In this document: one piece after another, positions 4,630-21,686 of the stretch
Numbering within the stretch: position 1 is the first letter of the stretch
Layout: the number at the start of each line of letters is the position of its first letter
Virus record (IMG/VR): IMGVR_UViG_3300027804_002812
Coordinates: 1 to 64,000 of that record
DNA length: 64,000 nt
Source of the DNA: a virus
Lineage: Duplodnaviria > Caudoviricetes
Reading direction: 5' to 3' (one strand)
Notes under the pieces: model-generated
Told to the model about the DNA's origin: nothing
Seen by the model: the letters and a program-made list of their open reading frames with translations, nothing else
Databases searched by the model: none
Translations under genes and position numbers: made by a program

Positions 4630-5921
4630 ATTAAATCCCAAAATAAATCGAAGTCCTGAGTTTTGTCTAACGCAATTTCGAGTAGTTTTCTTCTATTCGA
4701 TTCAAATCTCTCTTTATTTTTTTTATAAAATTCTTTTATTTGTTCTTTATTATTGTTGATTCTTTTAATTTCATCGATGAACATCAAAAATCTTTTTTTA
4801 TCATTTAATTCACTGTCGTAGGAATGGTCTATAACATCATCAAAAAAATCAAAATCGTACTTCTTTTTTAACTGTTTGATATGATTAGGTGTTGCTAAAA
4901 TCAATGGAATTTGATAATAGAAAAAAGGTCTGAAAGATTTTTCAGTAGTATGTATAACACCTGGATAGAAAGTTTGTGACTCATAAGCACTCTCTGAAAT
5001 TATATTAACATAAGAGTTCTCGTAACTTTCTTTGAGTTCTGGATAGTGAAGTGTCGATTGACCTTCTTGATGAAAACCTCTGAATCCATAATTATTGTAA
5101 TCATAATACCCTTTACCACTTTCATAATCGTCTTCTTTAATAGTTGTGTTGAATGATTTAATCAAATCGGCCTTTTGCCATATCTCAGCCTCATCAAATG
5201 ACAAATAATATGGCATAACATCATCTCCGGGATAGGTGAATAACTTTGAATAGTTAATATCTTGAAGAAGATTATTAATCATCAAATGAAATAACAAATT
5301 TAATCTATGTGGTTTAGCGGTCTTGTTCCTTGACATGAAGAATTTACCTGTTTTATTTTCCACAAAGTTTACATCTTTAACTTCAGTAAGAGCAAATGTT
5401 GAGGAATAGTCAATAAAATTGATTTTTTTCGCATTAACCCCGTATTTTTGACCCAAAAAATCACTCAAGGAATTATTGGTAACATAGTAAAACTGATTTG
5501 TTGATATCCCATTTTCTCTCAAAAGTTCTTTGGTACATTTTATCTCTGTGTCACATGCCGGCTCATGCTCCATAGTTATTATCAGAATCAAATTTTTATT
5601 TTGTCTAATAACTTCTAAAGTAGAATCCAACAAGAAAAAATTCCACTTGTTTTCCATAATCAATTTTGATGATAAAAATGCACTTCCCACAATACAAAAA
5701 AATTTTTCGTGTGGATTTTTTTTAACATCATCTAAATTACAAACTTTAATGGATAACTTACGTTCTGTATAATCTTTTCGATTTGTTGGCTCCATTATAT
5801 GAGTTTCGAAAAAATTTCTTGAATCAAAAAAAAGAAACTGATTGAAACTACTCATCCCATTGGCAATGGGTTCGTCACCGTTCCAAGATTCATAAACTAA
5901 ATTTAATGTTTTCTCTATCAT
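4626..5921 (-). CDS. Putative GT-B-fold glycosyltransferase (GT10/exostosin-like C-terminus), copy 3 of an unnamed family
   Basis: HRLNLL, SYVNIISES, TEKSFRPF, IPLILA, FDDVIDHSYD motifs shared with 7885..9201 and the C-terminal half of 9209..11332. Confidence 0.5.
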   Translation of the reverse strand: MIEKTLNLVYESWNGDEPIANGMSSFNQFLFFDSRNFFETHIMEPTNRKDYTERKLSIKVCNLDDVKKNPHEKFFCIVGSAFLSSKLIMENKWNFFLLDSTLEVIRQNKNLILIITMEHEPACDTEIKCTKELLRENGISTNQFYYVTNNSLSDFLGQKYGVNAKKINFIDYSSTFALTEVKDVNFVENKTGKFFMSRNKTAKPHRLNLLFHLMINNLLQDINYSKLFTYPGDDVMPYYLSFDEAEIWQKADLIKSFNTTIKEDDYESGKGYYDYNNYGFRGFHQEGQSTLHYPELKESYENSYVNIISESAYESQTFYPGVIHTTEKSFRPFFYYQIPLILATPNHIKQLKKKYDFDFFDDVIDHSYDSELNDKKRFLMFIDEIKRINNNKEQIKEFYKKNKERFESNRRKLLEIALDKTQDFDLFWDLI

Positions 5922-5937
5922 TTTTTTATTCTATAAC

Positions 5938-7101
5938 TCAATTTAATCGAGTATTACCATAATGTATCACTAAGTTTTCTTCAGAGTAATATTTTCTCCA
6001 TGGGTCAACCACTATCGAACCTTTTGGGAAAGGGTATTCATGAAATTTATTAAAATGAGCAAGCAAGTATATAGCGGTTTTGGGATTTTCAATATCAAAA
6101 TCAACTTGAATTCCTAATTCGTTAATATAGTGAGATACTAAAATTGATGATGATCCGTCTAAATAATCCACATCAGGTTTGTATGATTTACCTAAAATAA
6201 TAATTGGTAAATTATATTCTTTGGATAACTCAACCAATCTCATCGCCATATTTTTAGCCTGAACTTCTCGGGCTTCCATTATTGAATCAAACAAATCGTA
6301 CCCTAATCCTAATTTTTCAGACATAAATCTCAACGCAATATTGTCTCGTGGATGGCATCCTCCACCATCTCCCATACCTGCCTTCATATATGCAGGCCCT
6401 AATATCCTTTGTGTACTTCTTTCAAGAGCCCCTGTTACAATATCAACATTCATGTTACCATTTTTTTCGGCAACATCTTGGATCATATTCACTAAAGCGA
6501 CTTTTGTTGATATGAATGTGTTATAAAAAATCTTTATCGCTTCGGCCTCGTCCCAAGTTCCGACTTCACATCGTGTCGTCTTTGTTACTAATGTATCATA
6601 AAAATCAATCAGTAACTTTGCATCTCCTGTTAATGAACCATCTTCAGTTCCAATTATAATCATTTCAGGGTTAACCATATCAAACTTAACAGTACCCATC
6701 GCAATTAGATATGGGTTATAAATGAATCTGAAATTCTCACAAAGAGGAATAAATTCACGTCGAATTGTTCCAGGTAATACTGTGGAGATTAGTACCACAA
6801 GTTGGTCTTTGGTAGTGTATTTATTGACCTCCGAAAGTACTTCTTTGACTATTGAATAATCAAAATCTTTATTGGGTAAATGAGACGTAGGAAAACGACC
6901 ATCGTAGTCGGGATGGTGTGGTGTCGGAACCGCAACAAAAATTATATTTCTATTGTCACATACATTTTGAATACTATCCACCATTGTGAAATTAGATGGT
7001 TTGACCTCAATAACATCATAACCTATTACATCATGATGATTTGCCATAACTTCTGCGGCATCTTTTCCCAGTTTACCTACACCTATAAATCCTATTTTCA
7101 T
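5938..7101 (-). CDS. UDP-glucose/GDP-mannose 6-dehydrogenase family
   Basis: IGVGKLG, FVAVPTP, LISTVLPGT, YNPYLIAMG, AEAIKIFYNTF, GMGDGGGCHPRD (catalytic Cys), LGKSYKP. Confidence 0.92.
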   Translation of the reverse strand: MKIGFIGVGKLGKDAAEVMANHHDVIGYDVIEVKPSNFTMVDSIQNVCDNRNIIFVAVPTPHHPDYDGRFPTSHLPNKDFDYSIVKEVLSEVNKYTTKDQLVVLISTVLPGTIRREFIPLCENFRFIYNPYLIAMGTVKFDMVNPEMIIIGTEDGSLTGDAKLLIDFYDTLVTKTTRCEVGTWDEAEAIKIFYNTFISTKVALVNMIQDVAEKNGNMNVDIVTGALERSTQRILGPAYMKAGMGDGGGCHPRDNIALRFMSEKLGLGYDLFDSIMEAREVQAKNMAMRLVELSKEYNLPIIILGKSYKPDVDYLDGSSSILVSHYINELGIQVDFDIENPKTAIYLLAHFNKFHEYPFPKGSIVVDPWRKYYSEENLVIHYGNTRLN

Positions 7102-7925
7102 AAATAACTTTGTTCTCGATTTGTACCAATAAATTGTTGGTACGTTAGAGGTAAATTTAGAAAAAAATTGTCGACAAATCCACCAAAAAAACCATCAGCA
7201 CCACAACGATATGATAATTCTTTTTCATCATTAGTTTTATTTTTTCCTTTCGGAACTACATTATTGAGATTTATTCCATCAACTAAAAATTTCGAAGTTT
7301 CTTGGTTAATTATATATGTGTGAGCAGTCGCAGTTTGTCCTCTAAACAACTTAAACTCTTCCTGATAGTTTTCCTTAAGATGAAATCCTAAATTCAAAAA
7401 ACTAATTTCATTATTCAAATCATTATTATATAATTCAACTATGTTATCCAATGTTTTATCTTCAACATATTTATAAAACTTCGCATCATTTTCAAATATC
7501 AACGCTCTTTCATAATTGTTTTTTACAATATCCATTGATATCATCACATGAGAAATATGACATCCAAAAATGTAAAATTCATACATATGGGACTCAAATG
7601 GTGGACCTCCAAACTGTTCAATAATCCAATTGATAATATTTTGGCAATCGGTAGAATGTGTTTCCAAAAGGTCATTAATCATTTTTGGATACAAATAATT
7701 TACCAAAGGTAAAAACCCTTGGGAATCGGCTTCTTTGTCAAAAAAATTCATTTGATTTTCGGAACCAATAACATAGATTGCCGGCACCAAATTCAACCAT
7801 TTTTTCTGTCTTCCATTTATAGTTTCGAGTTGGTACTCAGCTTTTTTCAAGACAGAATTTTTTATCAAAAAGTCTACAATCGTATTATATGAATCTTTTG
7901 TTTCTTCGTTCATATTCAATGACAT
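7098..7925 (-). CDS. Glycosyltransferase family 25-like
   Basis: GCHISH...ALIFENDAKF, TAHTYIIN, GAD motifs match the GT25 pattern (GCxxSH, xEDD, T-x-xY). Confidence 0.65.
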   Translation of the reverse strand: MSLNMNEETKDSYNTIVDFLIKNSVLKKAEYQLETINGRQKKWLNLVPAIYVIGSENQMNFFDKEADSQGFLPLVNYLYPKMINDLLETHSTDCQNIINWIIEQFGGPPFESHMYEFYIFGCHISHVMISMDIVKNNYERALIFENDAKFYKYVEDKTLDNIVELYNNDLNNEISFLNLGFHLKENYQEEFKLFRGQTATAHTYIINQETSKFLVDGINLNNVVPKGKNKTNDEKELSYRCGADGFFGGFVDNFFLNLPLTYQQFIGTNREQSYL

Positions 7926-9201
7926 CTTTCATAAAAATTTCCCGCACAACATCGAAAGCGTACGGAGGTTTTTTCGATGCGTTATGTTCAAGAATGTTAT
8001 AATTGTGTATCAAAACATCCTTCATATCTTTATATATATTAATTTTATTTTTTTCTTTGTCGAATTGTTTGATACTCTCTATTATACCATCCATCCTTTT
8101 CGAGTCAGGTAAAGTATCATATCCCTCATCAATCCACTTGGAAAAAGTTTCATATCCAAGTTTTTTCATTTCATATAAACTATTTCGGTTTCCCAAAACA
8201 ATAAATGGATGATGACATGATATCGGTTTGAACATTTTTTCACTTAGGAAAACGGTTCCTTGGGAATCCTCATATTGAGCTTCACTTACCACTGACAACC
8301 AACTATCCAAATGAGGTTGTTCATAGATTCGTCTAATGTAGTATCCAGTGTCTAACAATTCATTGGATTTCCCGTACAAGTCACAGGGTAGTAAATCTTG
8401 GACTTCAGAAAACACGTTTTGGTCAATTTCAATATCACAAAAATTTCTATAATGTGGAGAAAACTTGTTCATACTTATTAATCCCTTCTCCAACAAATTG
8501 TTTTGATACAACTTAACAAAAAACCAAATTCTATGTTCTCGAGTTTTTTTATTCAAATTATTGAATAACTTAATGTTTTCAAGGTTGGACAATTTATATT
8601 CCAAATGTTCCTCAAATGTCTTCAATTGTTTATTCTCCCACCCCAAATGTCTAATTTCCCCAAACACATCACTTTCGAAATGAGAATATGGTATCGGATG
8701 CATTTTAATGCTTTGTGGATTAATTTCCAACCAAAGTTTATAACGTTCTTTAACTATAGAATTTCCTGTAACGAAAAAAATTTGATTAGGTGATATTCTA
8801 TAATCAACGCACTCGTTATGAAAAAAATCAAAAATCCAATCATCATGGTAACCTTCGAAACTTGAATCAATTAACAAATACGCGTTTCCATCACGTAAAT
8901 CCTTCAAGTATGTTTCATTCAAAAATTCAAAAAGACTTTGAGTTGTCTTATCTGCCGAGTACTTTCCTCCAGCCCACATTTCAGGATCGTTGTTTACCCC
9001 AACAGGAATTATGTATTTATCAGGTTTATTCTTTAATGTGAATTCTTGAAATGTAAATTTATGTTCTTCATTTAATCCACGAAGACATACCATACGATTA
9101 TATAATGGAGCAACTGTAAATCTATCAAATCCAGTTTTATTGGGTACCCAATTCTGAACAAAGTTTCGACTATTTTCCAAGTCTTCAAACACGAAATTCA
9201 T
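7885..9201 (-). CDS. Putative GT-B-fold glycosyltransferase (GT10/exostosin-like), copy 2
   Basis: REHRIWF, SWLSVVSE, FLSEKMFKPISCHHPFIVLG, GYETFSKWIDEGYD. Confidence 0.5.
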   Translation of the reverse strand: MNFVFEDLENSRNFVQNWVPNKTGFDRFTVAPLYNRMVCLRGLNEEHKFTFQEFTLKNKPDKYIIPVGVNNDPEMWAGGKYSADKTTQSLFEFLNETYLKDLRDGNAYLLIDSSFEGYHDDWIFDFFHNECVDYRISPNQIFFVTGNSIVKERYKLWLEINPQSIKMHPIPYSHFESDVFGEIRHLGWENKQLKTFEEHLEYKLSNLENIKLFNNLNKKTREHRIWFFVKLYQNNLLEKGLISMNKFSPHYRNFCDIEIDQNVFSEVQDLLPCDLYGKSNELLDTGYYIRRIYEQPHLDSWLSVVSEAQYEDSQGTVFLSEKMFKPISCHHPFIVLGNRNSLYEMKKLGYETFSKWIDEGYDTLPDSKRMDGIIESIKQFDKEKNKINIYKDMKDVLIHNYNILEHNASKKPPYAFDVVREIFMKDVIEYERRNKRFI

Positions 9202-9208
9202 ACATTAA

Positions 9209-11332
9209 TCAATTTTTTTTCCAAATACTTTTTAGAATTTCTTCGATTGGTTTTTTATTATTTGACCAACCATGTCCATCATAATCATATTTATTTTTTA
9301 TTATTTCCACAAATTTTTCTCTATTGAATAAACAAACTTCATACATCTCTTTTCGGATTTCTTTCAGTTCATTAATACTTTTCGTTTTGAACTTGTTCAA
9401 TTCTTTTATAACCATATCAATTTTTTTATGATGGTCAGGTTCAAAATCATAACTTTCATCTATCCATTTATCGAAAGTTTTATATCCTTGGTCTTTCAAA
9501 TACGACAAAGTGTTAACATTACCTAAAACTATAAAAGGATGACCCGCCACAATTGGTTTCCAAATTTTTTCTGACATAAATAGAATCGATGTATCAATTA
9601 ATGTTTCAGTTACTAATGATATGAAAGTAGACTCGTGGTCAGGTAACTCAATATTTGCAGCCCAATTTATATCCAAAGTTCTATCGATTTCTATCGGTGT
9701 CATTTTAGATAATTCTTCGTATTCATCGTGTGGTTCGAATCTTCCTAAACTAATTTTACCTATATCAAATAAACCATTTTTTATTAATTCGTTCACTAAA
9801 TGAATCCTGTGAGGTCTTGGATTTCTATTGTATGATAACAAGAAATACTTTTCATCTTTGGGATTAAAATCAACAATTTCATTTTTTAACAATCTGTAAT
9901 CCACCCACGAATCAAATATAGAAACGGGATGGCACTCAAACTTTAATCCCCTTTGTTTTCTAACCTCGTCAACTAACAAGTTCCCATGTATATAATGAAC
10001 CCCACTATCAGGTAAATTTGATTCTTTAATCCATCCATCGATAATTTCCAAATCATTATTGTAAATGTTCATTCCACTATAACCTTCGAACTGATGAATC
10101 ATTACAATTTTGGATTTATGATTTCTTACATCATTCAAATATTTTTCTGAAATACACTTAAATCCAATATCTTTGTTTTTACGAAAAAAGTTATTGTCAT
10201 AAACATTTATAAGATATAAATGTTTTTTATTTTCTATATTTATTTTGTCTATATAGTTTACGTTATCTCCGTAATTCACTAATATATTTTCCCTCAGAAC
10301 ATTGTTATCCCATACTTTATTACCATTTTCAATGTCGAACAAATTCCATACTCCCCATGTTTTAGGATAATCAAACCTACCTGTTTCTCGTAAGTACCAA
10401 GATTTAGATGACCCATTTGGCCGGTAGTAATCGAAGATACTATCCCAATCTTCCAAAGAACAACTAATTTTATTGTCCTCCATCAACTCTCTAATCCCAT
10501 CTTCGAAAGTGATATGATTGAATTGTATATGGGCATGTAAATTCGAAAAATCTACTCTATAAGAACGACTATCTTCACTATTAATTAATTCGTATTCTAA
10601 GTCGGGTTTAACTGTTCTTTTAATTTTTTCAATTAAATCAATTTTATTAATATTCAATTCATTCTTACCAATGTTAATGATTGTATCATTATAGTCTCCC
10701 TCGATAATACTTTTCAATATCTTAACACAATCCTTAATATGTAAATGTGGGCGTTCTGCCAAAGGGTCGAATATCTCTATTGGTTTTTCCTCTTTGATGT
10801 CTTGAATCAAATTGTTTATTAAAACATCATTTCTATTCAATTTACTTACACCATATAATGTAGACAACCTTACAATTTTGAATTTTGGATTGTTTTTTGA
10901 CAATAAAATGTTTTCACAAGAAATTTTCAATTCAGAATATAAAGATGAAATCTGAGTATCGGATTTTTCATTAACAATATCAGTCCGTTTCCCATATACA
11001 CTACAACTACTCGAAAATATTAATCTAACTTTTTCATTTGTTATCAAATCAACCGTTTTTTTGAACTGAGAAATTGGTTCAATTAATTGTGATCCATCTG
11101 TCAATTCCAATAATCTCGGTGATGCTAAATAAACTATTACATCTTGTGAATTTAATAACTCTCTATACTTTTCAATATTAGAAACATCATCATGAATGAT
11201 TGTTACATTTTTATTCAAAAATGTAATATTACTATATAAAAACTTATCATATACTGTAACATCACAATCGTTCATGCTATTTGATAATGGGATACCTAAA
11301 TAACCCGCACCCCCTATGATTAAAATTTTCAT
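9209..11332 (-). CDS. Fusion: NAD-dependent epimerase/dehydratase (N-terminal ~290 aa) + putative GT-B glycosyltransferase (copy 1)
   Basis: IIGGAGYLG, SSSCSVYG, YSELK, RLSTLYG; C-terminal RPHRIHL, TFISLVTET, SEKIWKPIVAGHPFIVLG, GYKTFDKWIDESYD. Confidence 0.75.
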   Translation of the reverse strand: MKILIIGGAGYLGIPLSNSMNDCDVTVYDKFLYSNITFLNKNVTIIHDDVSNIEKYRELLNSQDVIVYLASPRLLELTDGSQLIEPISQFKKTVDLITNEKVRLIFSSSCSVYGKRTDIVNEKSDTQISSLYSELKISCENILLSKNNPKFKIVRLSTLYGVSKLNRNDVLINNLIQDIKEEKPIEIFDPLAERPHLHIKDCVKILKSIIEGDYNDTIINIGKNELNINKIDLIEKIKRTVKPDLEYELINSEDSRSYRVDFSNLHAHIQFNHITFEDGIRELMEDNKISCSLEDWDSIFDYYRPNGSSKSWYLRETGRFDYPKTWGVWNLFDIENGNKVWDNNVLRENILVNYGDNVNYIDKINIENKKHLYLINVYDNNFFRKNKDIGFKCISEKYLNDVRNHKSKIVMIHQFEGYSGMNIYNNDLEIIDGWIKESNLPDSGVHYIHGNLLVDEVRKQRGLKFECHPVSIFDSWVDYRLLKNEIVDFNPKDEKYFLLSYNRNPRPHRIHLVNELIKNGLFDIGKISLGRFEPHDEYEELSKMTPIEIDRTLDINWAANIELPDHESTFISLVTETLIDTSILFMSEKIWKPIVAGHPFIVLGNVNTLSYLKDQGYKTFDKWIDESYDFEPDHHKKIDMVIKELNKFKTKSINELKEIRKEMYEVCLFNREKFVEIIKNKYDYDGHGWSNNKKPIEEILKSIWKKN

Positions 11333-11333
11333 A

Positions 11334-12344
11334 TTAGTCCCTTAATGTTTCAGTCGTTACACAATGAAAAGATCCACCCAAAGTTCTTGAGTGTCTGATC
11401 TTACAATCTAATGTATCTATATTATATTTTTTTAATTCTTTAATTAGTTCTGTTTGTCTATTGTCTAATATAACCGTGTTTTCGTCAATAGAAAGTAAAT
11501 TAATACCAACCCAAACAGAAGCTCGTTCGACTTTGTGGTAACCAATATCCACCATTTCAGGTGACCATATTTTATCCCAAGATTTCAACATCTCAGGCAT
11601 GTTTTTCTCATTTATCCTTGCAGGATTTAGAAGACATAGACCCTCTCTTAACAAAGCTATAGTAGAATCCAAATGAGAGTACGAATACATGTTTTCTAAC
11701 ACGTGTACTTTGTATTCTGACCCCAATAAATTTTGAAGCCATTTCGCTCCCAACTTATTCCCTGTATTACTCACCAGATACAGGATATCATTATTCGACC
11801 GTAAAATATTTGCAGCGTCGAATACAGGCTCTTTTTCAGTTAATGTTAACTTAGATAAATCTTTTCTTTGGTATGAATCATCCTTTAACATTGGTTTAGG
11901 TGCAGCAACCCATCTCGCCCCTTGTTCCATATACTGTATGAAATCTTCCCTAAAACAATATGTTTCGAATTGACGAGACCTCAAAGTCATTGGCGCCTCT
12001 ATGATTGTATCACCAATTACAGTTACAGTGTCTCTTGGACAAAAGGTATAGTATTGGTCTGTTTCCCAAAATCCATTACTTATTGTTGAAGTTGTGTCGA
12101 TTGATTTTGGTCTTTTAACATTTACCCCACATTCGTTTAGGATTTGAGATAAAGACTCTAAATCTTCTCGAGTTTCTTCATAAACTTTTTCATCAAAAAA
12201 ACCTAACTCTTTTGAAGGTATTATATCTTTGTCAGCATAGTTAATAGCATGAAGATCAACTCCATGTTTTGGCATATTTGCATTATCTATCGTACCAACG
12301 AAAACTTCTCTTAATTTACCCCATTCATTTTTAACTGATACCAT
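11334..12344 (-). CDS. Amidinotransferase, inosamine-phosphate amidinotransferase (StrB1)-like
   Basis: VSVKNEWGKLREVFVG, FCPRD, PMTLRSR, EPVFDAAN, LVSNTGNKLGAKWLQ, HLDSTI, HSRTLGGSFHC (catalytic Asp/His/Cys). Confidence 0.9.
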   Translation of the reverse strand: MVSVKNEWGKLREVFVGTIDNANMPKHGVDLHAINYADKDIIPSKELGFFDEKVYEETREDLESLSQILNECGVNVKRPKSIDTTSTISNGFWETDQYYTFCPRDTVTVIGDTIIEAPMTLRSRQFETYCFREDFIQYMEQGARWVAAPKPMLKDDSYQRKDLSKLTLTEKEPVFDAANILRSNNDILYLVSNTGNKLGAKWLQNLLGSEYKVHVLENMYSYSHLDSTIALLREGLCLLNPARINEKNMPEMLKSWDKIWSPEMVDIGYHKVERASVWVGINLLSIDENTVILDNRQTELIKELKKYNIDTLDCKIRHSRTLGGSFHCVTTETLRD

Positions 12345-13161
12345 TTTTAATTTTTTTTAATATTTTGTCAACCACAATATCTTGAGATAGGTGTCCATTA
12401 TGTGCACAGTCCCTTCCTTTTTCCTCAAAATCATCTTGAATTTGGTCAATTTTTATCTCATTGTGGAATAACTCAGATTTTTTCAAATTAAAATCATCTC
12501 CCCATGTCCAATGATAAACAGGAATATTCAATGTATTCCATAAATTATCACAAGTTAATGTAAATAAATTACTTTGTTTTATCAACTCACCTTCATTCTC
12601 AACAAACCCATAATGATACCAATCGAAATATTTTTCGTGATTTTTAGGGTACACTTCTTTTGGATATGAAATTGAGAACGTTTCTATTTGAACTGTATGA
12701 GGATTTCTGTAAAACATATAAGATGTCCTATTATCAAATGTCCATTGATAAATCACATACTTTGGCAACTTTTTCTTTTTCAACACAAAGTTATGAAACA
12801 AAATTGTATTGTAGAATGCGACATCGGGTCCTGACCCTCCAACTCCCAAGTTGAATACGTCCAAATTTAATTTTTTTGATAATTTAGTTGGCCAAATGTC
12901 ATCATAATGTAATCCAATACCTTCAGTGAAAGAACACCCAAAAACTACCATGTATTCATCACTAAGATCCGAAAATTCTTTTGCACGGTAACCCCAAGAG
13001 TTATACTTATACTCTAACTCTTTTTCATAATAATACCACTCCTTTCCAAGTTTTTTTCTATTTTCATAGAATTTTTCCTCACTGTCCGTTTGAGCAAATT
13101 TAGTAACCTGATTAGATTTAGAAGGTATAAATATTATGGGGACTTCTTTACTAAACTCCAT
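12331..13161 (-). CDS. SGNH hydrolase-like protein
   Basis: YNSWGYR, FGCSFTEG, FNLGVGG, DCAHNGHLSQ. Confidence 0.62.
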   Translation of the reverse strand: MEFSKEVPIIFIPSKSNQVTKFAQTDSEEKFYENRKKLGKEWYYYEKELEYKYNSWGYRAKEFSDLSDEYMVVFGCSFTEGIGLHYDDIWPTKLSKKLNLDVFNLGVGGSGPDVAFYNTILFHNFVLKKKKLPKYVIYQWTFDNRTSYMFYRNPHTVQIETFSISYPKEVYPKNHEKYFDWYHYGFVENEGELIKQSNLFTLTCDNLWNTLNIPVYHWTWGDDFNLKKSELFHNEIKIDQIQDDFEEKGRDCAHNGHLSQDIVVDKILKKIKNGIS

Positions 13162-13837
13162 TGAAAATTTTATTTAATCTCAAATCTTTATAAGACATGT
13201 GGCTGTGGGAGTCATCATTTACTTCGGATATATTATCCATAAGAATTATTCCTCTTGCGGCATCTTCGGGAGTCATGTACATATGCCATCCTAACATTTC
13301 TATATCATCTTCCATATAGTTTTTTTCTAAATTACGTCCGTCATAACACGCTCTTTTGAACCATGTGTAAGCATCATAATCATCACATAAAATCATCCCT
13401 CCCCTTCCAATAGGCAATCGTTTTTTGATTTGGAATGATAACGCCGCAAATCCTCCTTCATACATTCCTTTTGTCCACCTACCAGCAAAATCCCATACAT
13501 CTAATGGTTCTAATTTATAGGTTCCTGACCACTTTTTATCAACAAACTCAAACTCATATCCAGCATGTAATATTTGCATCGGCACAGATGCATATGTAAA
13601 ATATGGTATTTTAACTTTTTGTGGATTGTTAATATACTTTAGTATTAAGAAAATCGCATTACTACAACAATCAACCGCAACTGCAAACTTAGACCCGCAA
13701 AAATCAGAGACTTTTTTTTCAAAAATATCAACAACTTCCGTCGGGTTACCAAAAGAATAACCTCTATCCTTGAGTTGATTCAATTCAGGTCTCTGTAATT
13801 CGGAAGGTAGTTGACCTAACGGCCATTGTTTATACAT
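13151..13837 (-). CDS. Short (228 aa) DegT/DnrJ-family PLP-dependent aminotransferase-like protein
   Basis: FEKKVSDFCGSKFAVAVDCCSNA, IPYFTYASV, LSFQIKKRLPIGRGGMIL (Lys retained), GWHMYMTPEDAARG. Confidence 0.78.
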   Translation of the reverse strand: MYKQWPLGQLPSELQRPELNQLKDRGYSFGNPTEVVDIFEKKVSDFCGSKFAVAVDCCSNAIFLILKYINNPQKVKIPYFTYASVPMQILHAGYEFEFVDKKWSGTYKLEPLDVWDFAGRWTKGMYEGGFAALSFQIKKRLPIGRGGMILCDDYDAYTWFKRACYDGRNLEKNYMEDDIEMLGWHMYMTPEDAARGIILMDNISEVNDDSHSHMSYKDLRLNKIFNGV

Positions 13838-14870
13838 CTTTGAATGCTTTGGTATATTTTTTCTTGATTATGTTCCAATCTTCAGTGACGAATGCACTTT
13901 CTTTTCTTACGTAATTTTCAGCAAAATTGGACCAAGTGGATGTTGGAACTTTTATCAAAAACTTACAAAAAGATAAACTGAATAAATCCACTAAATTTGG
14001 TACAACATTTCCATATTCGAGTTCACTTTTTTGAATACCTGATGTAACAATATAATCGTAAACAATATTCAATATGTTTTTCTTATCAATTAAATTATCT
14101 CCATATTTTTCATAAAAATACCCCATGATTTCATCGGGTAAATCAGAACTGATATAGAATTTTTGATTTGGGTTTAATTTCAAAATGTTGTCCATTATAT
14201 TGAAATATAATTCGTCTTGATGGAATGAATAGAAATTATCTGTTTGGTATCGAGGAATTCTTTTAATCAATTCAAAATTACCTCTTATCTCTTCAGGTAA
14301 ACTATTCAAGTCATCGTGATTAAATGGAATACCATTACCTCTTCTTATATGAATACCTACAGCGTTCCTTACTTCATATTTTATTGATTCCTCAACACTT
14401 TTATATCTTAATTTAATTTCCTTAAGTGGCCTATCAATCATTTCTACAGTCTCAATTGGATAAAGGTCTTTTAATGCTTTGTACCCAAAATTACTGTAAT
14501 AATGTCCTCCATTTTTAAGTTTACACCCATCATACCCAAACATTTGCCAAATCATTTCGAAAGAAATTGGATTCGCAGTGTTTATTTCTTGGTTCACAGT
14601 GTCGTATACCGCAATAAACTTTAATTTCTCGACATCATAAGTGTCTCCTTCAATATTTCTGAAAAATTTAGTTTTGGGTAAATCAATCAACTTAAATTCA
14701 GGCCAATACTTTTCCTCCAATATGATATGATAATCAAAATTGTTGTTCTTATTTATTTCATATGCGACTTCCCAATGAAATATTCTATTACAAAGTCCTG
14801 TATCTTCGGTATCCTTGTCCCATCCTCCAAAGGGCTCTACCCATCTTAATGTATTTTTATAGTCTGGCAT
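13830..14870 (-). CDS. GDP-fucose-type glycosyltransferase (GT11/GT23/O-FucT-like)
   Basis: GLCNRIF (GLGNQLF-like), VGIHIRRGN, FYISSD, DLFSLSFCKFLI, STWSNFA. Confidence 0.7.
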   Translation of the reverse strand: MPDYKNTLRWVEPFGGWDKDTEDTGLCNRIFHWEVAYEINKNNNFDYHIILEEKYWPEFKLIDLPKTKFFRNIEGDTYDVEKLKFIAVYDTVNQEINTANPISFEMIWQMFGYDGCKLKNGGHYYSNFGYKALKDLYPIETVEMIDRPLKEIKLRYKSVEESIKYEVRNAVGIHIRRGNGIPFNHDDLNSLPEEIRGNFELIKRIPRYQTDNFYSFHQDELYFNIMDNILKLNPNQKFYISSDLPDEIMGYFYEKYGDNLIDKKNILNIVYDYIVTSGIQKSELEYGNVVPNLVDLFSLSFCKFLIKVPTSTWSNFAENYVRKESAFVTEDWNIIKKKYTKAFKDV

Positions 14871-14879
14871 ATTACAATT

Positions 14880-15986
14880 TTATTTAATGAATATCTTAAT
14901 ATATTTTTCAATAATTTTATCAATACTATTAGTAGCGTCTAATGCTGGTTGATGTCTATAATCTTCCGCAAACTCACTCCAAGTCGATTTATTTGATTTG
15001 ATTAAAAAACTACAATAACTTAAAGAAAACAAATCCACAATATTTTCAACTACATTACCATATGTTTTTAACTTATATACATCATGATGATTGTCAACTA
15101 AAAATTCATTTATTTGTTTAATGATTTCAGTGTTATTTATCAAGTTATTTGGATATCGATTATAATATTGTGACAATAAATTTTTTGGTAAATCACTGCT
15201 TATGTATATCTTTTGAGAAGGGTCTATCTCTAATATTCCATCAATTATTTTGAAATATACATCATCCCTAATAAACTTATAAGCGTTATGGTGTGAATTT
15301 GTTTTTTTAATAAATTGACTATAATCTTCCCTATTTTCATCAGGTAATGAATTTATGTCATCTTCGGTCACATAAACTCCATTATGCCTTCGTATATGAA
15401 TTCCAACACACCCTTTTGTAAAATTTTCTAAAAGATTCTGAATAAAATTATATTTTATTTTTATGTTTTGAAGCGGTCTTTCAACTAAATGGATTATAGG
15501 ATATTGAATCGCAAGATCTGGATTGTATCTAAAGTTTATCAACCTTTTAATATCGTAATAACCAAAATCTGAATGAGCCTCTTTAGGAAACCTGTAATCT
15601 TCATTAAAAAATGCATTTTCAATACAATCCCTTGTTATTGGTGTTGTCATTGATACCGACATATTTTTTATATCATAAACCGTTAGAAACTTGAGACGAT
15701 TAAACTCCATTGGATAGTATAATCCATATGCAAACTTTTCCATTTTTACTGGATGGGTATGTGGTAAATCTAAAATTTCAAGTTCCGGCCAAAACATATC
15801 TTGGAGTAAAATATCATATCCAAAATTATTTTTTTCATTAATGAACTCCGCAACTTCCCAATGAAATATTCTATTACAAAGACCGGTATCTGTACCGTAT
15901 TCAAGTTTTACATAGTCAAAGAAATTACTATGATGGCCCCATCCTCCGAATGGTTCCAACCATCTTAACGTACCATCATAATACAT
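14880..15986 (-). CDS. GDP-fucose-type glycosyltransferase, tandem paralog of 13830..14870
   Basis: TLRWLEPFGGW, DTGLCNRIFHWEVA, VGIHIRRHN, IYISSD, DLFSLSYCSFLI, STWSEFA. Confidence 0.7.
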   Translation of the reverse strand: MYYDGTLRWLEPFGGWGHHSNFFDYVKLEYGTDTGLCNRIFHWEVAEFINEKNNFGYDILLQDMFWPELEILDLPHTHPVKMEKFAYGLYYPMEFNRLKFLTVYDIKNMSVSMTTPITRDCIENAFFNEDYRFPKEAHSDFGYYDIKRLINFRYNPDLAIQYPIIHLVERPLQNIKIKYNFIQNLLENFTKGCVGIHIRRHNGVYVTEDDINSLPDENREDYSQFIKKTNSHHNAYKFIRDDVYFKIIDGILEIDPSQKIYISSDLPKNLLSQYYNRYPNNLINNTEIIKQINEFLVDNHHDVYKLKTYGNVVENIVDLFSLSYCSFLIKSNKSTWSEFAEDYRHQPALDATNSIDKIIEKYIKIFIK

Positions 15987-15988
15987 TC

Positions 15989-17437
15989 TTATTTGTTATA
16001 ATTATCCTTATCTGAAATGTATTCACCTGGTTCATAATGTGTGATTCGTCCATCTGTAACTCTCACATCAGGTATGGTTTCATCAATTTCAATCGAATTA
16101 TACCAATCCTCTAATTCAGGAAAAGTTTCAACAAAACTTTTATTTCTTCTTTTATCATATTGTGTATAAAAACTTTTGAAATCGTGAAATTGCATTTGCA
16201 TGTCAGTTTCAGTTGTATTGTGTCCACGGTTAACTACCTCGATGTAATCAACTAATCTTTGAATTTGAGCACCTTCATACATGTTAATCAATGGGTTCTT
16301 TTTATTTTTTCTCCACCACATTGATAATTTACCGTGTAAATCATGTTTAACATCATCAGGTAACGTCAAAGGTGACATAAATGCCGGCCATCTAAGAATG
16401 TTGAAGTCCACAATAGGTTTGTTCCATCCATACTTAGCCTTTAGTGTTAACATATCATCCAAGAATTCAGTGATACTAAACAGACATAAACTATTAATTG
16501 TCATCATAATCACAACTTGTCTCACGTTACCTTTCTCAATGACTTGAACCAAATTGTTTCTCCACACTTCGTAGTTCAAACCATCTCTGATGTATTCTGC
16601 GTGTGCTCCATATGATTCATTACTAGTATAAATGTCAAATTCTTTAACATCAATTTCATTTGTTACGTTTATCAACTTATCAATAAATTCTTGACTGACA
16701 CCTAAATTAGAATTAATAGCAACTCTTAGGTTTGGTGATGGATATTTTTTTACTTCTTCCATAAACTGCCAGAAATTATGACTCATGGTAGGTTCTCCTC
16801 CAGTAACTCTAATCTCTTGTAATGTTTTTGTTAGTTCTGGCCACCACTCTAAGAATGCCGACACATATGGATTATTTTCATTGTGTTTACCATAGATTTC
16901 AGACCAAGATCCATCAGCATAATATGCCCCTGCACTTGTGGTCTTGAACTTTTGATAAGCTCCATTCTTTTTGATGTCTTTACCCCAAGTTGTTGAATAA
17001 CCTGAATTACAGTATGAACACGCAAAGTTACAGGTACGATCGAAACTAACTTCAATAGTTTTTGGGGTAATGTCTGCATCCCAAGGAAAGTCTTTCAATG
17101 CCGCAATTTCTTCTTCAGTGTAAATTTGACTTTTATATACACGGTCAGAAATATTATTTCGACCAATATCTTCAATCTTCCAACAATATGAACATTCTGC
17201 AGGTTTAGTACCTTCCAACATCATTTTTCTAATTTCTTTTTTGAAATCAGTATTATGTAATGCGGATGGATTTGTTTTGATTTTTTCTAAATCAATAGGA
17301 TGGGGTAATGGAAGATGACATGAATTTGTAAACCCATGACCTAAATGTAAACTGACGTTATACCATTTTGCGGCACAAAAGCTACAACTTACGGAATTTA
17401 GGTTTTTATCTCTCCAATTTGCTAATTGCTCTGACAT
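15989..17437 (-). CDS. Radical SAM protein with N-terminal twitch (half-SPASM) domain
   Basis: N-terminal CSFCAAKW...NSCHLP...CSYCW precedes the CNFACSYC radical SAM motif; TGGEP. Confidence 0.88.
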   Translation of the reverse strand: MSEQLANWRDKNLNSVSCSFCAAKWYNVSLHLGHGFTNSCHLPLPHPIDLEKIKTNPSALHNTDFKKEIRKMMLEGTKPAECSYCWKIEDIGRNNISDRVYKSQIYTEEEIAALKDFPWDADITPKTIEVSFDRTCNFACSYCNSGYSTTWGKDIKKNGAYQKFKTTSAGAYYADGSWSEIYGKHNENNPYVSAFLEWWPELTKTLQEIRVTGGEPTMSHNFWQFMEEVKKYPSPNLRVAINSNLGVSQEFIDKLINVTNEIDVKEFDIYTSNESYGAHAEYIRDGLNYEVWRNNLVQVIEKGNVRQVVIMMTINSLCLFSITEFLDDMLTLKAKYGWNKPIVDFNILRWPAFMSPLTLPDDVKHDLHGKLSMWWRKNKKNPLINMYEGAQIQRLVDYIEVVNRGHNTTETDMQMQFHDFKSFYTQYDKRRNKSFVETFPELEDWYNSIEIDETIPDVRVTDGRITHYEPGEYISDKDNYNK

Positions 17438-17444
17438 TCTTGTT

Positions 17445-18158
17445 TTATTTGATTAATTCTAAAAAATTCTTATTACTGGATTCATCGTAAATTATACCCA
17501 AATTATTTGATATATTAAAGTCATAGTAACATAACAAATTTGTATAGGTATTATAAGATGGAAACTTGAAAGTCTCTGTATTAACATATTCCTTAACACT
17601 ATGAATATCCGAAATGTTTTCCAAAATAAAAAACAACCTGATATCCATTTCTCCGTGCCATTTGTTTTCTGGAGAATTATCAGATGAGTTACTTGAACAT
17701 CCTAAATATAATGCAGTGTCTCGGTACTTTTCGCATAAATTTCCTTCGAAACCTTGGGAACCAACTTCTTCTAAATTTTTGTAAATTATGAATTTGTTTT
17801 TATTTCGTATAATAGTCACTGATATACCCTTTTCTAACTCATCTCTCAGAAGAGGTATAGTTATACTTTGATTATTTTGGCCTTTAATCCTATAAATAAA
17901 AAACAAATGATTGTTAATCTTATTATAAACTAAACCAATATTTTTACTCGGTTTCCCGAATAACATAAAGTGTTCGTCTAAAACAAAATCTTCTTCGATT
18001 CTGAAATCAATATGGATTGTAAATTCATCATTGTAAAAAAACTCATCAAAAGTATCGTTAAGTTTTTTATTGTATTGTGTAACATATTGGTCATCTGGGT
18101 GTTCTTCGATTTCCCATTTGAATTTCATCCAATACGGTTGTTTATAATTTATTTTCAT
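17445..18158 (-). CDS. Stand-alone LamG/concanavalin-A-like jelly-roll protein
   Basis: FTIHIDF, VTII..FIIYKN, LYLGCSS, WHGEMD, LLCYYDFN, IYDES; paralogous to the N-terminus of 18142..20262 (MKIxYxxP start). Confidence 0.6.
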   Translation of the reverse strand: MKINYKQPYWMKFKWEIEEHPDDQYVTQYNKKLNDTFDEFFYNDEFTIHIDFRIEEDFVLDEHFMLFGKPSKNIGLVYNKINNHLFFIYRIKGQNNQSITIPLLRDELEKGISVTIIRNKNKFIIYKNLEEVGSQGFEGNLCEKYRDTALYLGCSSNSSDNSPENKWHGEMDIRLFFILENISDIHSVKEYVNTETFKFPSYNTYTNLLCYYDFNISNNLGIIYDESSNKNFLELIK

Positions 18159-20262
18159 TACTAATTTCTTCGAAAAATGATTTTAGTTCAGGGTAATATT
18201 CTTCAACTTTCAAACCTCTACGTGATTCGTATTGTTTAACAAAGTTATAAAGATCGAGTTTATGTTGATACAAATCATTATCATGTAATTTCTTGTCTGA
18301 AATGAATATGTCTCTTAGTCTCGACACTTTTTCTATTTCTTGAGTTGAAAATCCAACATCCTCAACGTTCTGCATTTGATGGAAATTCAAACTTCGATAT
18401 GTTGAATTGAACTTCATGTACTTTATCCATCTATCAAAATAATCTTGCGTTATATAATCTTTCAAGATTCTAAAACTCATAAACGATGGTTGTCTTAAAT
18501 AAGATGTATCTAATATAATTGCAGAACTCCAATATCTCAGAGGATTAAAGTGTTTAACTTTGAACTCATGAACTTTTCTAATTAATGATTCGTATGAAAA
18601 AACACTAAAAATATTAAAAGTAGACATGATTACTACCGTAACTTTGGGTAATGCAGTTAATACTTTATCTATATTGTTAAATAATTTTTCAAAATTCATC
18701 CCATATCTTGTATACTCAGATTGAATTCCATACCCATCACAAGATGTGAAAATAACAATTTCTTTTACTAAATCATTCTCGATAATTTTATTCAATTTAT
18801 CTATTAATTTATCTATCAAATTATCGGGAACTCCAAGATTACTATTTATGGAAAGTTTAAGATTTTGGTTTGGTTGTTCTGTTTCCAAAATGAAATCCAA
18901 TACTTTCCAAGTATCTTTAGATAATAGTGGTTCTCCACCAGTAATTCTAAATGTATCCATACTTTTATAAAGTTCGGGAAACCATTCCCAAAAACTATTA
19001 ACGTATGGGTTATCCTCAGAATGTTTGTATGGCTTAGTATTACGTTCTTCCATACGTCTTGTACCATTGTATTCAAATGAAAGTTGGTAAGGGCCGTGGT
19101 CATTAATTTCTTCCATCCATTTTGAAGAATATTCAGGTCCACAATACGCACATTTGAAATTACAGGTGTTAGAAAAACTAACTTCTACGTATTTTGGATT
19201 GTAATTATCCCTCCAATCTGACTTAGAAACTTCTTCGAAAAAAGGTTCTGACCAAGGTTCGGAAGATTTGAAAACTCTATCTGAAAATGAGTTTGAATTA
19301 TCTTCAACATTCCAACAATAGGAACATTCTGAAGGTCTCTCATTTTCCAACATTTGTTTACGAGCAAGTTTTTTAACTTTACTATTGTGTAAAGCAGTAG
19401 GATTACGAGACAACTCTTCTAAAGTTACCTTATGAGGTTCAGGATGGTGACAAGAGTGAGTTGTTCCATTATGTAAGTGCATTGTGACTTGTGTCCATTT
19501 CGCAAGACAAAATCCACAACCTACGGAGTCCAACTTTTTCTTGTTTGCTTCGAATTGATTAGTTGATATTTTATCTTTTTCTTTATCTTTTGAAAGTTTC
19601 AAATTAAACAAATAGAACTTATCCTTGAATTCATCTTTTATGGTACATTCTTCCCCCAAATTGTCTCTCAAGTCAAAAGCACACAATAAATTATTTGTAA
19701 TCAACTCTTGGTCAATACTCATTCTTGTTACAAATTTTTTAATCTGTTGCATAGTTAATACAGTATCGAATATGGAAAAATGATAAACATCCATTTCAGT
19801 CATACTTCTATGCATCATAACATCTGAGTCCATGTTATGGCAACCAATAAAAAAGTTTTTATCTGCGTAATCATTAATCAAGTCATACTTTGTATCAATA
19901 GTATCAACTAGTTTGTAATTGAAATACAAATTAAATTGGTTGTTGGCATACGTTAGGGTTATGTTTGCTTCATTGTCATACATACCGTCCTTTACAGTAT
20001 TGTAGGTATAACAGTTGTGAATTGAATTACCGTCCTCACCTTTGGTCCAAAATTCAAAAACGAATAAATCTACTTCGTAGTCATAACTTACACCAAAATT
20101 TTTTCCAGGGACACCGAAAAATCCAATTTTTTCATCTCGAGCAAAATATCTACCAACCCTGAAAGATAAACTTATTGTATATTCTTTTTTTAGAATTAAA
20201 TTAGTTTGTTCCTCACCAGAATTAACCTTTAGGTACCAAGGTTTTTCATATTCTATTTTCAT
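18142..20262 (-). CDS. Fusion: LamG-like domain + N-terminal-twitch radical SAM enzyme
   Basis: N-terminal YTISLSF, ITLTYANNQFNLYFN, FFIGCHN, LLCAFDL; then CGFCLAKW...HSCHHP...CSYCW, CNFKCAYC, TGGEP. Confidence 0.85.
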   Translation of the reverse strand: MKIEYEKPWYLKVNSGEEQTNLILKKEYTISLSFRVGRYFARDEKIGFFGVPGKNFGVSYDYEVDLFVFEFWTKGEDGNSIHNCYTYNTVKDGMYDNEANITLTYANNQFNLYFNYKLVDTIDTKYDLINDYADKNFFIGCHNMDSDVMMHRSMTEMDVYHFSIFDTVLTMQQIKKFVTRMSIDQELITNNLLCAFDLRDNLGEECTIKDEFKDKFYLFNLKLSKDKEKDKISTNQFEANKKKLDSVGCGFCLAKWTQVTMHLHNGTTHSCHHPEPHKVTLEELSRNPTALHNSKVKKLARKQMLENERPSECSYCWNVEDNSNSFSDRVFKSSEPWSEPFFEEVSKSDWRDNYNPKYVEVSFSNTCNFKCAYCGPEYSSKWMEEINDHGPYQLSFEYNGTRRMEERNTKPYKHSEDNPYVNSFWEWFPELYKSMDTFRITGGEPLLSKDTWKVLDFILETEQPNQNLKLSINSNLGVPDNLIDKLIDKLNKIIENDLVKEIVIFTSCDGYGIQSEYTRYGMNFEKLFNNIDKVLTALPKVTVVIMSTFNIFSVFSYESLIRKVHEFKVKHFNPLRYWSSAIILDTSYLRQPSFMSFRILKDYITQDYFDRWIKYMKFNSTYRSLNFHQMQNVEDVGFSTQEIEKVSRLRDIFISDKKLHDNDLYQHKLDLYNFVKQYESRRGLKVEEYYPELKSFFEEISNENKL

Positions 20263-21686
20263 TACTTCATTATTACATTTATAAACCTTGTATTCGGATA
20301 TAATGATTCGTCAATATTAACCAACTCAGTCACATCTAATATTTTATTATAACCTTCTTCTTTATAATTAATTTTATTCTGTTGCATTTCAGTTACAAAT
20401 CTTTTTTCATTTCTTGCGGTGGTATCACCTTTTGCCCATTTTCCATTTACAAATCCTTCATCTTCATGATAGATACAATCAAAAGAACCCTCTCTTCTAT
20501 ATGGTAAAATTAAATCTTTTACTTCAATATCTTCATTTACAAAGATAGTATTATTATTATAAAATTCATAATTATTGACAATGTCTTTATCTGAAGCATC
20601 AAAATTATAGTGAAGTACTAAACCACTTTTATCTTCGAAAATAGTGTTTATGTCATCAACAAATTTATCATAAACCTTAACTTCAGCAATTTTACCCTTC
20701 AAAAAAACACCAGTATGAGAACACACTCCCATAAGGATAGGTTTGATTGAATCATGAGCCTTCAACTTTTTTTCGATGTGTAATGGTATATGTTCTTTAA
20801 CTCCATTCATATTGTAGTTCAATTCATCATTGACATATAGATAATAATTCCCGTTTTCAGAGTCATATGTTACTGTGACCCACGTCCATTCATTCTCAAA
20901 TCTTTTTGCATAATTGTAATGATGATTACTGTCCCTATCATATACTATTGAAGAAATAGCTCTTGAATTATTGAAGGAAAGTCCCCAATTGTAACTTCCA
21001 TCTTTTCTTATTAATGGATACTCAATGAATTTTCGTTCTTCGTCTCCAACCAACCAAATTGGGACTTTATCAGGTTGTTGGTCAGCACTGAATAATATTG
21101 ATATAGTATGGTCTTGATGTAAACAAGAACTTATTTCTCTATTAACGTTGAATGCCAAATATGAATCATTTCCATTAAATTGTGCAACCTTCCTATTTTG
21201 ATGTTTTTCGAAAACTTTGTAAGTTGTCAATCCTTCAAAATACGCCCTCCAAAATAAATCGTCATCTTCTTGGCCCCAATCCCAATAGTCATTTGAATAC
21301 CCATTTGTTTTCAAAACTTGGTCTTTGGTGAAAAGAATTATCCCACCAAAATATTGTTCATAACCTAACTTATATCCATATTTGGATAGTTTGGTTGCAA
21401 TATGGACAGGGAACTCATCGGGGTAAGAATAGTCACAAGTGTCATCATGAGGAACCATGTCAACATCATGCCAAGCAATGTAATCACAACCGTCTTCGAA
21501 GGCATGATATGCTGCAATATTTTTCATTGCACCTCTATTAAACAACTTATCATCCACTTGATGTCCTACATAAAATTTATGAGGGATTCCCTTGTTCTTT
21601 AAGTGTTCAGTTAGACGAGGTATTAATTCCTCTATATGTTCTTTTCTATTTCTGTATGGTATACAGATTCCTAATTTTGGTTTCAT
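20262..21686 (-). CDS. GT7 (beta-1,4-galactosyltransferase-like) with an inserted LamG domain
   Basis: IPYRNR, AWHDVD, YFGGI, GYSNDYWDWGQEDDDL; LamG insert (FNGNDSY, WVTVTYD, LYVND, LKGKIAEVKVY, LHYNFD); GT resumes PYRREGSFDCIYHE. Confidence 0.85.
   Translation of the reverse strand: MKPKLGICIPYRNRKEHIEELIPRLTEHLKNKGIPHKFYVGHQVDDKLFNRGAMKNIAAYHAFEDGCDYIAWHDVDMVPHDDTCDYSYPDEFPVHIATKLSKYGYKLGYEQYFGGIILFTKDQVLKTNGYSNDYWDWGQEDDDLFWRAYFEGLTTYKVFEKHQNRKVAQFNGNDSYLAFNVNREISSCLHQDHTISILFSADQQPDKVPIWLVGDEERKFIEYPLIRKDGSYNWGLSFNNSRAISSIVYDRDSNHHYNYAKRFENEWTWVTVTYDSENGNYYLYVNDELNYNMNGVKEHIPLHIEKKLKAHDSIKPILMGVCSHTGVFLKGKIAEVKVYDKFVDDINTIFEDKSGLVLHYNFDASDKDIVNNYEFYNNNTIFVNEDIEVKDLILPYRREGSFDCIYHEDEGFVNGKWAKGDTTARNEKRFVTEMQQNKINYKEEGYNKILDVTELVNIDESLYPNTRFINVIMK

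Follow-up and report, generated by a model that had tools for sequence, protein, structure and literature searches.

What a freshwater giant phage would do with an enzyme whose best solved match is StrB1, the L-arginine:scyllo-inosamine-4-phosphate amidinotransferase of Streptomyces griseus (1bwd), is the question raised by a 336-residue protein, here called P0001, which is encoded at 11334..12344 (minus strand) of the IMG/VR virus record IMGVR_UViG_3300027804_002812. The window analysed is the first 64 kb of that record, which in full comprises 326,291 bp (CheckV completeness 100%); coding in the window is on the minus strand throughout, and its GC content is about 31%. Because the record encodes a T4-type baseplate wedge, a Hoc-like protein, ribonucleotide reductase, DnaB, and UvsX, its source is regarded as a giant myovirus with only distant kin among cultured phages; a megablast comparison of the gene block around P0001 with known phages gave zero matches. 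Judged from sequence and gene surroundings, the amidinotransferase most likely acts on an amino sugar and not on a cyclitol, and its product would be a guanidino sugar of permanent positive charge destined for a phage glycan.

P0001 is collinear with StrB1 over its full length and of about the same size (residues 1–334 against 3–338 of chain 1bwd_A; E 3.2e-97, 329 bits; phmmer against PDB sequences). The first-pass annotation of this DNA, made from the letters alone, had recognized a StrB1-like reading frame of 336 aa by seven motifs, and correctly so: VSVKNEW, CPRD, PMTLRSR, EPVFDAAN, LVSNTGNKLGAKWLQ, HLDSTI, and HSRTLGGSFHC are all present and each lines up with the same motif of StrB1, though the Pfam and NCBIfam profiles returned nothing for P0001 at E 0.01 and the PDB sequence search alone identified it. 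Lesser matches in that search were HsvA (9e-61), SxtG (2e-57), and AGAT (5e-52), each covering approximately residues 2–335 and scoring 120–150 bits under StrB1 (180–209 bits vs 329). AGAT reaches 173–180 bits, so the glycine-specific enzymes, with which the annotation had allowed that P0001 might instead group, are not its closest relatives.

The catalytic Cys, His, and Asp residues of StrB1 recur in P0001, where C328, H224, D226, D176, and D105 correspond in the alignment to StrB1 C332, H227, D229, D179, and D108; the arginine-binding Arg and Ser are likewise present as R243 and S276, which in AGAT structures hold the carboxylate of arginine. All seven residues are invariant in 119 homologues, that is, 37 viral copies (23 distinct sequences), 27 from actinomycetes, and 55 others, and the length of 336 aa is constant in more than 120 metagenomic relatives with 74–94% identity. 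P0001 looks catalytically intact, with arginine as the donor, and is predicted to be an active amidinotransferase of the StrB1 family; in a ping-pong reaction, L-arginine would amidinate Cys328, ornithine would leave, and an amine acceptor would then take the amidino group to become a guanidine. Near-identical DNA of the stretch occurs in freshwater metagenomes of 12 studies, contigs from three of which keep the gene order, and more than 2,400 metagenomic relatives of P0001 were found at E ≤ 1e-10. A single 186-nt contig of a freshwater metatranscriptome, identical to 11764–11949 inside the gene, is a weak hint of transcription which was not counted as expression because DNA carry-over is possible.

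Family membership and acceptor are separate matters, and the phylogenetic comparison with StrB1 that had been proposed at first pass qualifies the resemblance. In a quick IQ-TREE reconstruction (LG+C20) P0001 falls into a virus-only clade (15 rows, support 100), the sisters of which are metagenomic sequences with weak support, while the amidinotransferases of Actinomycetota form a separate clade (support 100). One Streptomyces protein of this actinomycete clade reaches 523 bits against 1bwd, where P0001 reaches 329, which puts StrB1 in that clade. The viral and the actinomycete clades differ at twelve alignment positions that are at least 90% fixed within each of them, and at two of these, positions 167 and 317 in P0001 numbering (R170 and T321 of StrB1), the actinomycete clade stands alone. 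At position 167 StrB1 and the actinomycete clade have Arg and P0001 has Thr, the other lineages being non-Arg with the exception of the locus labelled L112, which has Arg (L-numbers are our labels for loci throughout); at position 317, eleven residues ahead of the catalytic Cys, Thr or Ser in the actinomycete clade is opposed to Arg in all other lineages. P0001 thus is without the derived state of the StrB1 clade at both positions (T167/R317 vs R/T).

A scan of bacterial genomes (one per species), with patterns derived from a 10-sequence alignment, placed the short StrB1-like subfamily in at least 441 species; the best 80 of these are 42–51% identical to P0001 and belong to Actinomycetota, Cyanobacteriota, Pseudomonadota, Myxococcota, Bdellovibrionota, Acidobacteriota, Bacillota, and others. 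The StrB1-like homologues of Streptomyces, at about 45–50% identity (43–47% by tblastn), are no closer than these relatives from many phyla, and their similarity therefore says little about the acceptor. Among 1.8 billion cluster representatives, 171 clusters matched at E ≤ 1e-30, and the best cluster besides that of P0001 itself scores no higher than StrB1; more distant copies are carried by Campylobacter phages, where they are annotated as glycine amidinotransferases. In the 326-kb genome, no member of the Gfo/Idh/MocA (PF01408), inositol-phosphate synthase (PF07994), or dehydroquinate (DHQ)-synthase-like (PF01761) families was found, with controls matched, kinases not searched, and supply by the host possible. 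Because of the separate clade, the absent R/T signature, and the cyclitol genes not found, a streptomycin-like cyclitol reading is not supported by anything positive beyond family resemblance.

The conserved partner of the amidinotransferase points in another direction. A DegT-family gene two genes upstream had been noted in the first-pass annotation and is real (13151..13837, minus strand; 228 aa; PF01041, E 1.1e-14), but its product, called mini-DegT here, is a short form of a sugar aminotransferase-like enzyme, without the C-terminal domain and with an internal deletion. D56, D116, and K139 (the latter in an SFQxKK motif) do not vary among 16 sequences, the most distant of which are 34% identical; K139 aligns with the lysine in the GNK motif of GDP-perosamine synthase, the lysine that binds pyridoxal phosphate (PLP), and D116 is the aspartate for the pyridine nitrogen. 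The AlphaFold2 (AF2) model (predicted local distance difference test, pLDDT, 88.6) has the large domain of fold type I, and its top Foldseek matches are GDP-perosamine synthase, ArnB, CalS13, and PseC (E approximately 1e-10, probability 1.0, template modelling (TM) score on the query 0.62–0.68), with C4 sugar-nucleotide aminotransferases matching best. On the target the TM score is only about 0.41, as the C-terminal domain is absent and some 40 residues are missing internally, unlike in the canonical two-domain enzymes of approximately 360–400 aa. Residues and model together argue for an intact PLP enzyme in a compact form.

Short-form DegT proteins (195–246 aa) make up a large, mostly viral family, present on at least 558 stretches in IMG/VR. 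At the best 80 viral mini-DegT loci a short-chain dehydrogenase/reductase (SDR) resembling 4,6-dehydratases was found in 42, within 1.5 kb in 39 of them, and the amidinotransferase in 12; given that difference, mini-DegT is a general phage sugar aminotransferase and the amidinotransferase an optional added step, which tends to accompany the dehydrogenase and radical S-adenosylmethionine (SAM) enzymes described below. Mini-DegT and the adjoining SDR constitute a compact two-gene amino-sugar cassette.

The amidinotransferase gene overlaps its upstream neighbour by 14 nt and is separated by 1 nt from the next gene downstream (9209..11332, minus strand), which encodes a 707-aa fusion of an SDR (residues 1–287; PF01370, E 9e-20) with a part resembling glycosyltransferases of fold GT-B (residues 288–707). 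The SDR domain has its best PDB match in 6vo6 (E 8e-20), the heptose C4 dehydrogenase Cj1427, followed by UDP-glucuronate 4-epimerases and UDP-xylose synthase (UXS); all of these nearest solved relatives act through 4-keto sugar-nucleotide intermediates. Residues 288–707 have no match among Pfam, NCBIfam, and PDB profiles, a faint lead to GT10 (0.80) coming from Atlas. In the AF2 model (pLDDT 87) the top 50 Foldseek matches are all GT-B glycosyltransferases (33 with E ≤ 1e-3, best 1.3e-5; TM scores only 0.36–0.43), led by the O-GlcNAc transferases of Ser-rich-repeat proteins SdgB and GtfA, by BshA, and by fucosyltransferases; relatives carry SDR and GT-B as separate genes. Directly following is a 438-aa paralogue (7885..9201, minus strand), 30% identical (E 8e-26) to residues 391–670 of the fusion. 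The virus-only family of approximately 400 aa to which both belong has no match in Pfam, NCBIfam, or PDB sequences, including a search of its family profile against PDB. It has five paralogues in the block, at 4626–5921, 7885–9201, and 9209–10470 of the window and at 13472–14668 and 17348–18523 of L005, the opposite end of the record (G000 306292–326291), all on the minus strand; an E...EK motif (TET...SEKIWKP), invariant among them, recalls motifs of fucosyltransferases. Further downstream, at 5938..7101 (minus strand), a nucleotide-sugar 6-dehydrogenase of the UDP-glucose dehydrogenase type (Ugd-like; PF00984, PF03721; TIGR03026, E 1.7e-44) is encoded, with the UDP-glucose 6-dehydrogenases AglM and TuaD as best equivalogs. 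Upstream, at 15989..17437 (minus strand), lies the gene for a 482-aa radical SAM enzyme with an N-terminal twitch domain (NF033640, E 2.4e-91, above cut-off).

The association with these partners persists in close and in more distant relatives. When 40 viral loci with a relative of the amidinotransferase were searched by tblastn, mini-DegT was detected in 33 of them, the 707-aa protein in 31, and the 438-aa GT-B protein in 30; radical SAM genes turned up in 27 loci and Ugd genes in 23. Lineages at 42–51% identity carry more weight. At 51% identity, a single 11-kb contig (L042) carries radical SAM, GT-B, amidinotransferase, Ugd, SDR, and mini-DegT; L072 (48%) has mini-DegT; L180, L181, L194, L197, and L200 (45–46%) have GT-Bs, Ugd, and mini-DegT, then the amidinotransferase some 20 nt downstream, then an N-terminal-twitch radical SAM enzyme; in L131 (44%) Ugd, radical SAM, and amidinotransferase are consecutive; and L040 and L041 (42%) carry mini-DegT and the GT-B family. 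A sister lineage at 44–47% (L122) has a GT7 pair, a radical SAM pair, GT-B paralogues, SDRs, a pair of thiamine diphosphate (TPP)-dependent proteins, and a carbamoyltransferase, as does the block in the window. Twitch radical SAM enzymes thus reappear near the amidinotransferase in distant viral lineages, and a Ugd-like gene stands beside it again in the independent lineages L042, L131, and L180–L200. The recurring core across independent viral lineages consists of dehydrogenase, radical SAM, mini-DegT, amidinotransferase, and GT-B.

One carrier is in culture. The Synechococcus phage S-SCSM2R, a T4-like cyanophage, has in a row glycosyltransferases, a mini-DegT of 195 aa (ORF305, 38% identical to that of the window), a radical SAM enzyme, a glycosyltransferase, a 2-oxoglutarate (2OG) oxygenase, an "inosamine amidinotransferase" (ORF309, 43%), and a GT2 glycosyltransferase. 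Its radical SAM protein is, unlike those of the window, short (266 aa) and not of the N-terminal-twitch kind, and neither Ugd nor an SDR-GT fusion is nearby. ORF305, ORF306, and ORF309 were published, without experiments, as antibiotic synthesis genes (PMC12801897, BMC Biol 2025); the gene context argues for glycan tailoring over the antibiotic synthesis proposed by the authors.

P0001 is best read as converting an amino group of a sugar to a guanidino group, as the family assignment holds, the DegT-type partner is conserved, and the surroundings are those of glycan biosynthesis; with Ugd, SDR, glycosyltransferases, and radical SAM as the partners, unlike in the case of StrB1, an amino sugar is the predicted acceptor. 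We put the probability that this acceptor is an amino sugar of the block's own glycan pathway at roughly 0.55; it would probably still be nucleotide-activated when amidinated. The StrB1-like pocket is chemically plausible for the 1-phosphate or nucleotide of a 4-amino sugar, since its amine would lie para to the phosphate, as in scyllo-inosamine 4-phosphate. Acceptor, amine position, sequence of steps, and final target of the glycan are inferred as follows. A host sugar nucleotide, probably UDP-glucose, would be oxidized to UDP-glucuronic acid by the Ugd-like dehydrogenase; the SDR domain of the 707-aa protein and/or the N-terminal-twitch radical SAM enzyme would convert the latter to a keto sugar, which mini-DegT would transaminate; the amidinotransferase would turn the amine into a guanidine; and the fused and adjacent GT-B and GT7 glycosyltransferases would move the guanidino sugar into a phage glycan, possibly on a collagen-like, Ser/Thr-rich fibre. 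The specific passage through UDP-glucuronic acid carries much less confidence, well short of even odds. A sugar-1-phosphate nucleotidyltransferase is not encoded in the phage genome, and the phage therefore would tailor sugar nucleotides of the host.

Several known systems follow comparable logic. In streptidine synthesis, too, an alcohol is oxidized, transaminated by a DegT-family enzyme, and amidinated. In the syntheses of 2-deoxystreptamine (BtrN/BtrS) and blasticidin S (BlsE/BlsH), a radical SAM enzyme oxidizes a cyclitol or a glucuronic-acid sugar, respectively, to the keto form, which a DegT-type enzyme then aminates, resembling the recurring combination of Ugd, radical SAM, and mini-DegT; the likeness lies in the combination of enzymes, and the radical SAM proteins of the window carry the twitch at the N-terminus (NF033640), BtrN at the C-terminus. 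The Arn pathway to UDP-4-amino-4-deoxy-L-arabinose (Ugd, the dehydrogenase domain of ArnA, ArnB) shares with the block a Ugd-like enzyme, an SDR of the UDP-glucuronate type, and a DegT model that matches ArnB, and it ends in a cationic sugar, as is proposed for the block. The block in contrast has no formyltransferase, lipid carrier transferase, or ArnT; it has the additional amidinotransferase step leading to a guanidine, and its target is probably a phage protein glycan instead of lipid A.

A number of observations weigh against an amino-sugar acceptor. Most of the 40 viral loci represent one clade, so that their synteny is partly inherited and not independent, and the flanks of L122, L130, and L131 are without a detectable mini-DegT. 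Within the same viral clade, L033–L037 (66–69% identical) have the amidinotransferase among a DNA-methylase-like gene, ClpP, and a PD-(D/E)XK nuclease, and sugar-nucleotide genes were not found there within 10 kb; the acceptor in these loci may differ. Their context also includes small methyltransferase-like genes, and GT4 genes 5 kb off; at 10001–12102 of L035, and also in L033, L034, L036, and L037, a 362-aa protein whose C-terminus resembles DNA methylases begins 4 nt ahead of the amidinotransferase's end. A look-up of the exact sequence of the L035 homologue gave no record. Near the member of another sister lineage (P0123, locus L128) no sugar genes were seen. The lead of C4 over C3 aminotransferases among the Foldseek matches of mini-DegT is slight (5.6e-11 vs approximately 1e-9). 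In the searchable literature guanidino groups on carbohydrates appeared only in aminoglycoside-type secondary metabolites, no natural guanidino sugar being found in a glycoconjugate, whether of protein or cell surface, and a search for amidinotransferase together with glycosyltransferase yielded nothing relevant.

Amidination could also take place later than proposed, after the sugar has been placed, either on an amino sugar within the fibre glycan or on lysines of virion proteins, which would become homoarginine. The evidence from context is identical for such tailoring at the polymer level and does not discriminate between the levels; the block moreover encodes other enzymes of late tailoring (SGNH-like proteins, a NodU-like carbamoyltransferase, 2OG oxygenases), and in the paper describing 1bwd the StrB1-type active site is said to be more open than that of AGAT. 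All characterized members of the family, however, use small soluble acceptors, and the phage gene is wedged among those of sugar-nucleotide enzymes (mini-DegT, SDR) and not among structural genes; we regard late amidination as rather improbable.

To about the same low degree we credit the possibility that P0001 is an auxiliary metabolic enzyme for a free small amine, be it glycine, lysine, ornithine, a polyamine (as for HsvA), or a GABA-like compound, and that its position in a sugar block is incidental. AGAT/GATM, CyrA, SxtG, AmtA, and HsvA share fold, catalytic residues, ping-pong chemistry, and arginine as the donor with P0001, with HsvA, SxtG, and AGAT clear homologues, and L033–L037 and L128, where sugar-nucleotide genes are missing nearby, would fit such a role; the authors of the S-SCSM2R study, too, read their copy as secondary-metabolite-like. 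These enzymes differ from P0001 in that they serve glycine, lysine, polyamines, or a polyketide-like amine and in that none is found in a glycosylation cluster, and AGAT, SxtG, and HsvA trail StrB1 by the margin in bits given above. The placement of the viral gene, in addition, is conserved in at least five lineages at 42–51% identity, often beside a sugar aminotransferase, Ugd, and glycosyltransferases.

Less probable still is a true analogue of StrB1, acting on scyllo-inosamine 4-phosphate or a similar phosphorylated aminocyclitol made from host inositol by a BtrN-type radical SAM enzyme and mini-DegT. The first-pass annotation had proposed a guanidinylated amino sugar or cyclitol; its amino-sugar half is favoured by the glycan context and the conserved DegT partner, while the cyclitol, or aminoglycoside, half finds no footing in the clade, in T167/R317 as against R167/T317 in StrB1 and its whole clade, or in the cyclitol genes looked for, and the constant partners, Ugd and glycosyltransferases, use sugar nucleotides. 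What speaks for a cyclitol is that StrB1 is the best solved match and that twitch-domain radical SAM enzymes occur in the same block, for which BtrN, oxidizing an alcohol of an aminocyclitol, is a precedent. That the gene is decaying or has lost catalysis, or that it encodes a pentein-superfamily hydrolase, is hardly credible, as nothing specific other than the failure of the Pfam models to recognize P0001 would suggest it and the catalytic residues in the viral copies, the length of 336 aa in its metagenomic relatives, and the stretch itself in the freshwater metagenomes have all been kept.

The remainder of the block, all on the minus strand, is consistent in character with the genes already described. 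In the direction of transcription it begins with two glycosyltransferases (20262..23128) combining GT7 (beta-1,4-galactosyltransferase-like) and LamG domains (PF13733, PF02709, PF13385), and the block likewise opens with this pair in relatives and in L122, the sister lineage. There follow, at 17445..20262, a 706-aa fusion of LamG with an N-terminal-twitch radical SAM enzyme (NF033640, E 4.2e-93; Laminin_G_3 weak) and a 237-aa LamG-like protein matching residues 1–218 of the fusion; the two N-terminal-twitch radical SAM enzymes of the window are 37% identical to each other, and the standalone gene for the LamG domain lies between them. After the 482-aa radical SAM enzyme come two paralogues of 346 and 368 aa (13830..15986; 41% identical, E 5e-86) that are fucosyltransferase-like by language-model features only, their Atlas feature matches to FUT8/NodZ/O-FucT clusters (0.94–0.95) being a lead and not a test. 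Between mini-DegT and the amidinotransferase, a 276-aa protein weakly resembling SGNH/GDSL proteins (12331..13161) is encoded, which is present in 14 of the 40 viral loci; BLASTP relates it to paralogues at 3119–3856 of the window and 2529–3338 of L005 (E 5e-6 and 2e-7), and these connect to the GDSL-like protein at 2502–3122. A PDB sequence search with the 276-, 346-, and 368-aa proteins gave no matches.

Downstream, the 707-aa and 438-aa proteins are followed by a GT25 glycosyltransferase, the Ugd-like dehydrogenase, further paralogues, SGNH-like proteins, a DUF5672 protein, and a full-length DegT (566–1753, minus strand). The latter scores best as RfbH, the CDP-6-deoxy-4-hexulose 3-dehydrase (E 1.7e-62, below cut-off), and may be a 3,6-dideoxy-sugar dehydrase instead of an aminotransferase. 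The block extends over the ends of the record with an SDR resembling GDP-mannose 4,6-dehydratase, more SDRs, a 2OG oxygenase, a split TPP-dependent pair, and a NodU-like carbamoyltransferase. The latter (NodU/TobZ type) and the split pair (E1-like, 209 and 175 aa), which is arranged around a GT-B paralogue, occupy 11278–15298 of L005 (minus strand), with the 2OG-Fe(II) oxygenase alongside; these genes suggest carbamoylation of sugars and two-carbon branching. The ends of the linear record split one SDR gene, its N-terminal 192 codons at 1–576 of the window and a C-terminal part of 136 codons at 19471–19881 of L005 (both minus strand). A direct join of the two ends leaves the frame interrupted, and therefore a few bases at the ends of the record are probably missing or duplicated.

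As for where such a glycan might be attached, a collagen-like protein of 1706 aa with (Gly-Thr-Ser)n repeats is encoded directly upstream of the sugar block (27616..32736, minus strand). Its translation contains hundreds of GTS or GSS triplets in two long arrays, the N-terminal, middle, and C-terminal parts being globular, and these repeats account for a local rise in GC to 44–47%. The fibre is a candidate substrate for O-glycosylation and would thus be an acceptor of the glycan. It is a tentative extension, on which we would not wager even odds, that giant phages abundant in fresh water and the sea synthesize a guanidino sugar in nucleotide-activated form, such as a 4-guanidino-4-deoxy uronic acid or pentose with UDP-glucuronic acid as its precursor, and put it on their collagen-like virion fibres.

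The amidinotransferase family and its presence in a phage, S-SCSM2R, are already known. New are the placement of P0001 outside the StrB1 clade together with the residue signature, the finding of no cyclitol genes, the recognition of mini-DegT as a PLP enzyme with its key residues intact, the assignment of the fused domain to the GT-B fold, and the five-part core recurring in independent viral lineages. "Inosamine amidinotransferase" and "antibiotic synthesis" are tempting mis-annotations which the gene context does not indicate, and the result corrects that label. The clade is common, and the prediction is open to a direct test in the cultured carrier S-SCSM2R. If true, it would add a new sugar modification that is cationic at any pH, and thereby a new class of natural glycoconjugate sugar, the permanent positive charge of which would serve adsorption and could affect the adhesion of giant phages to hosts or particles.

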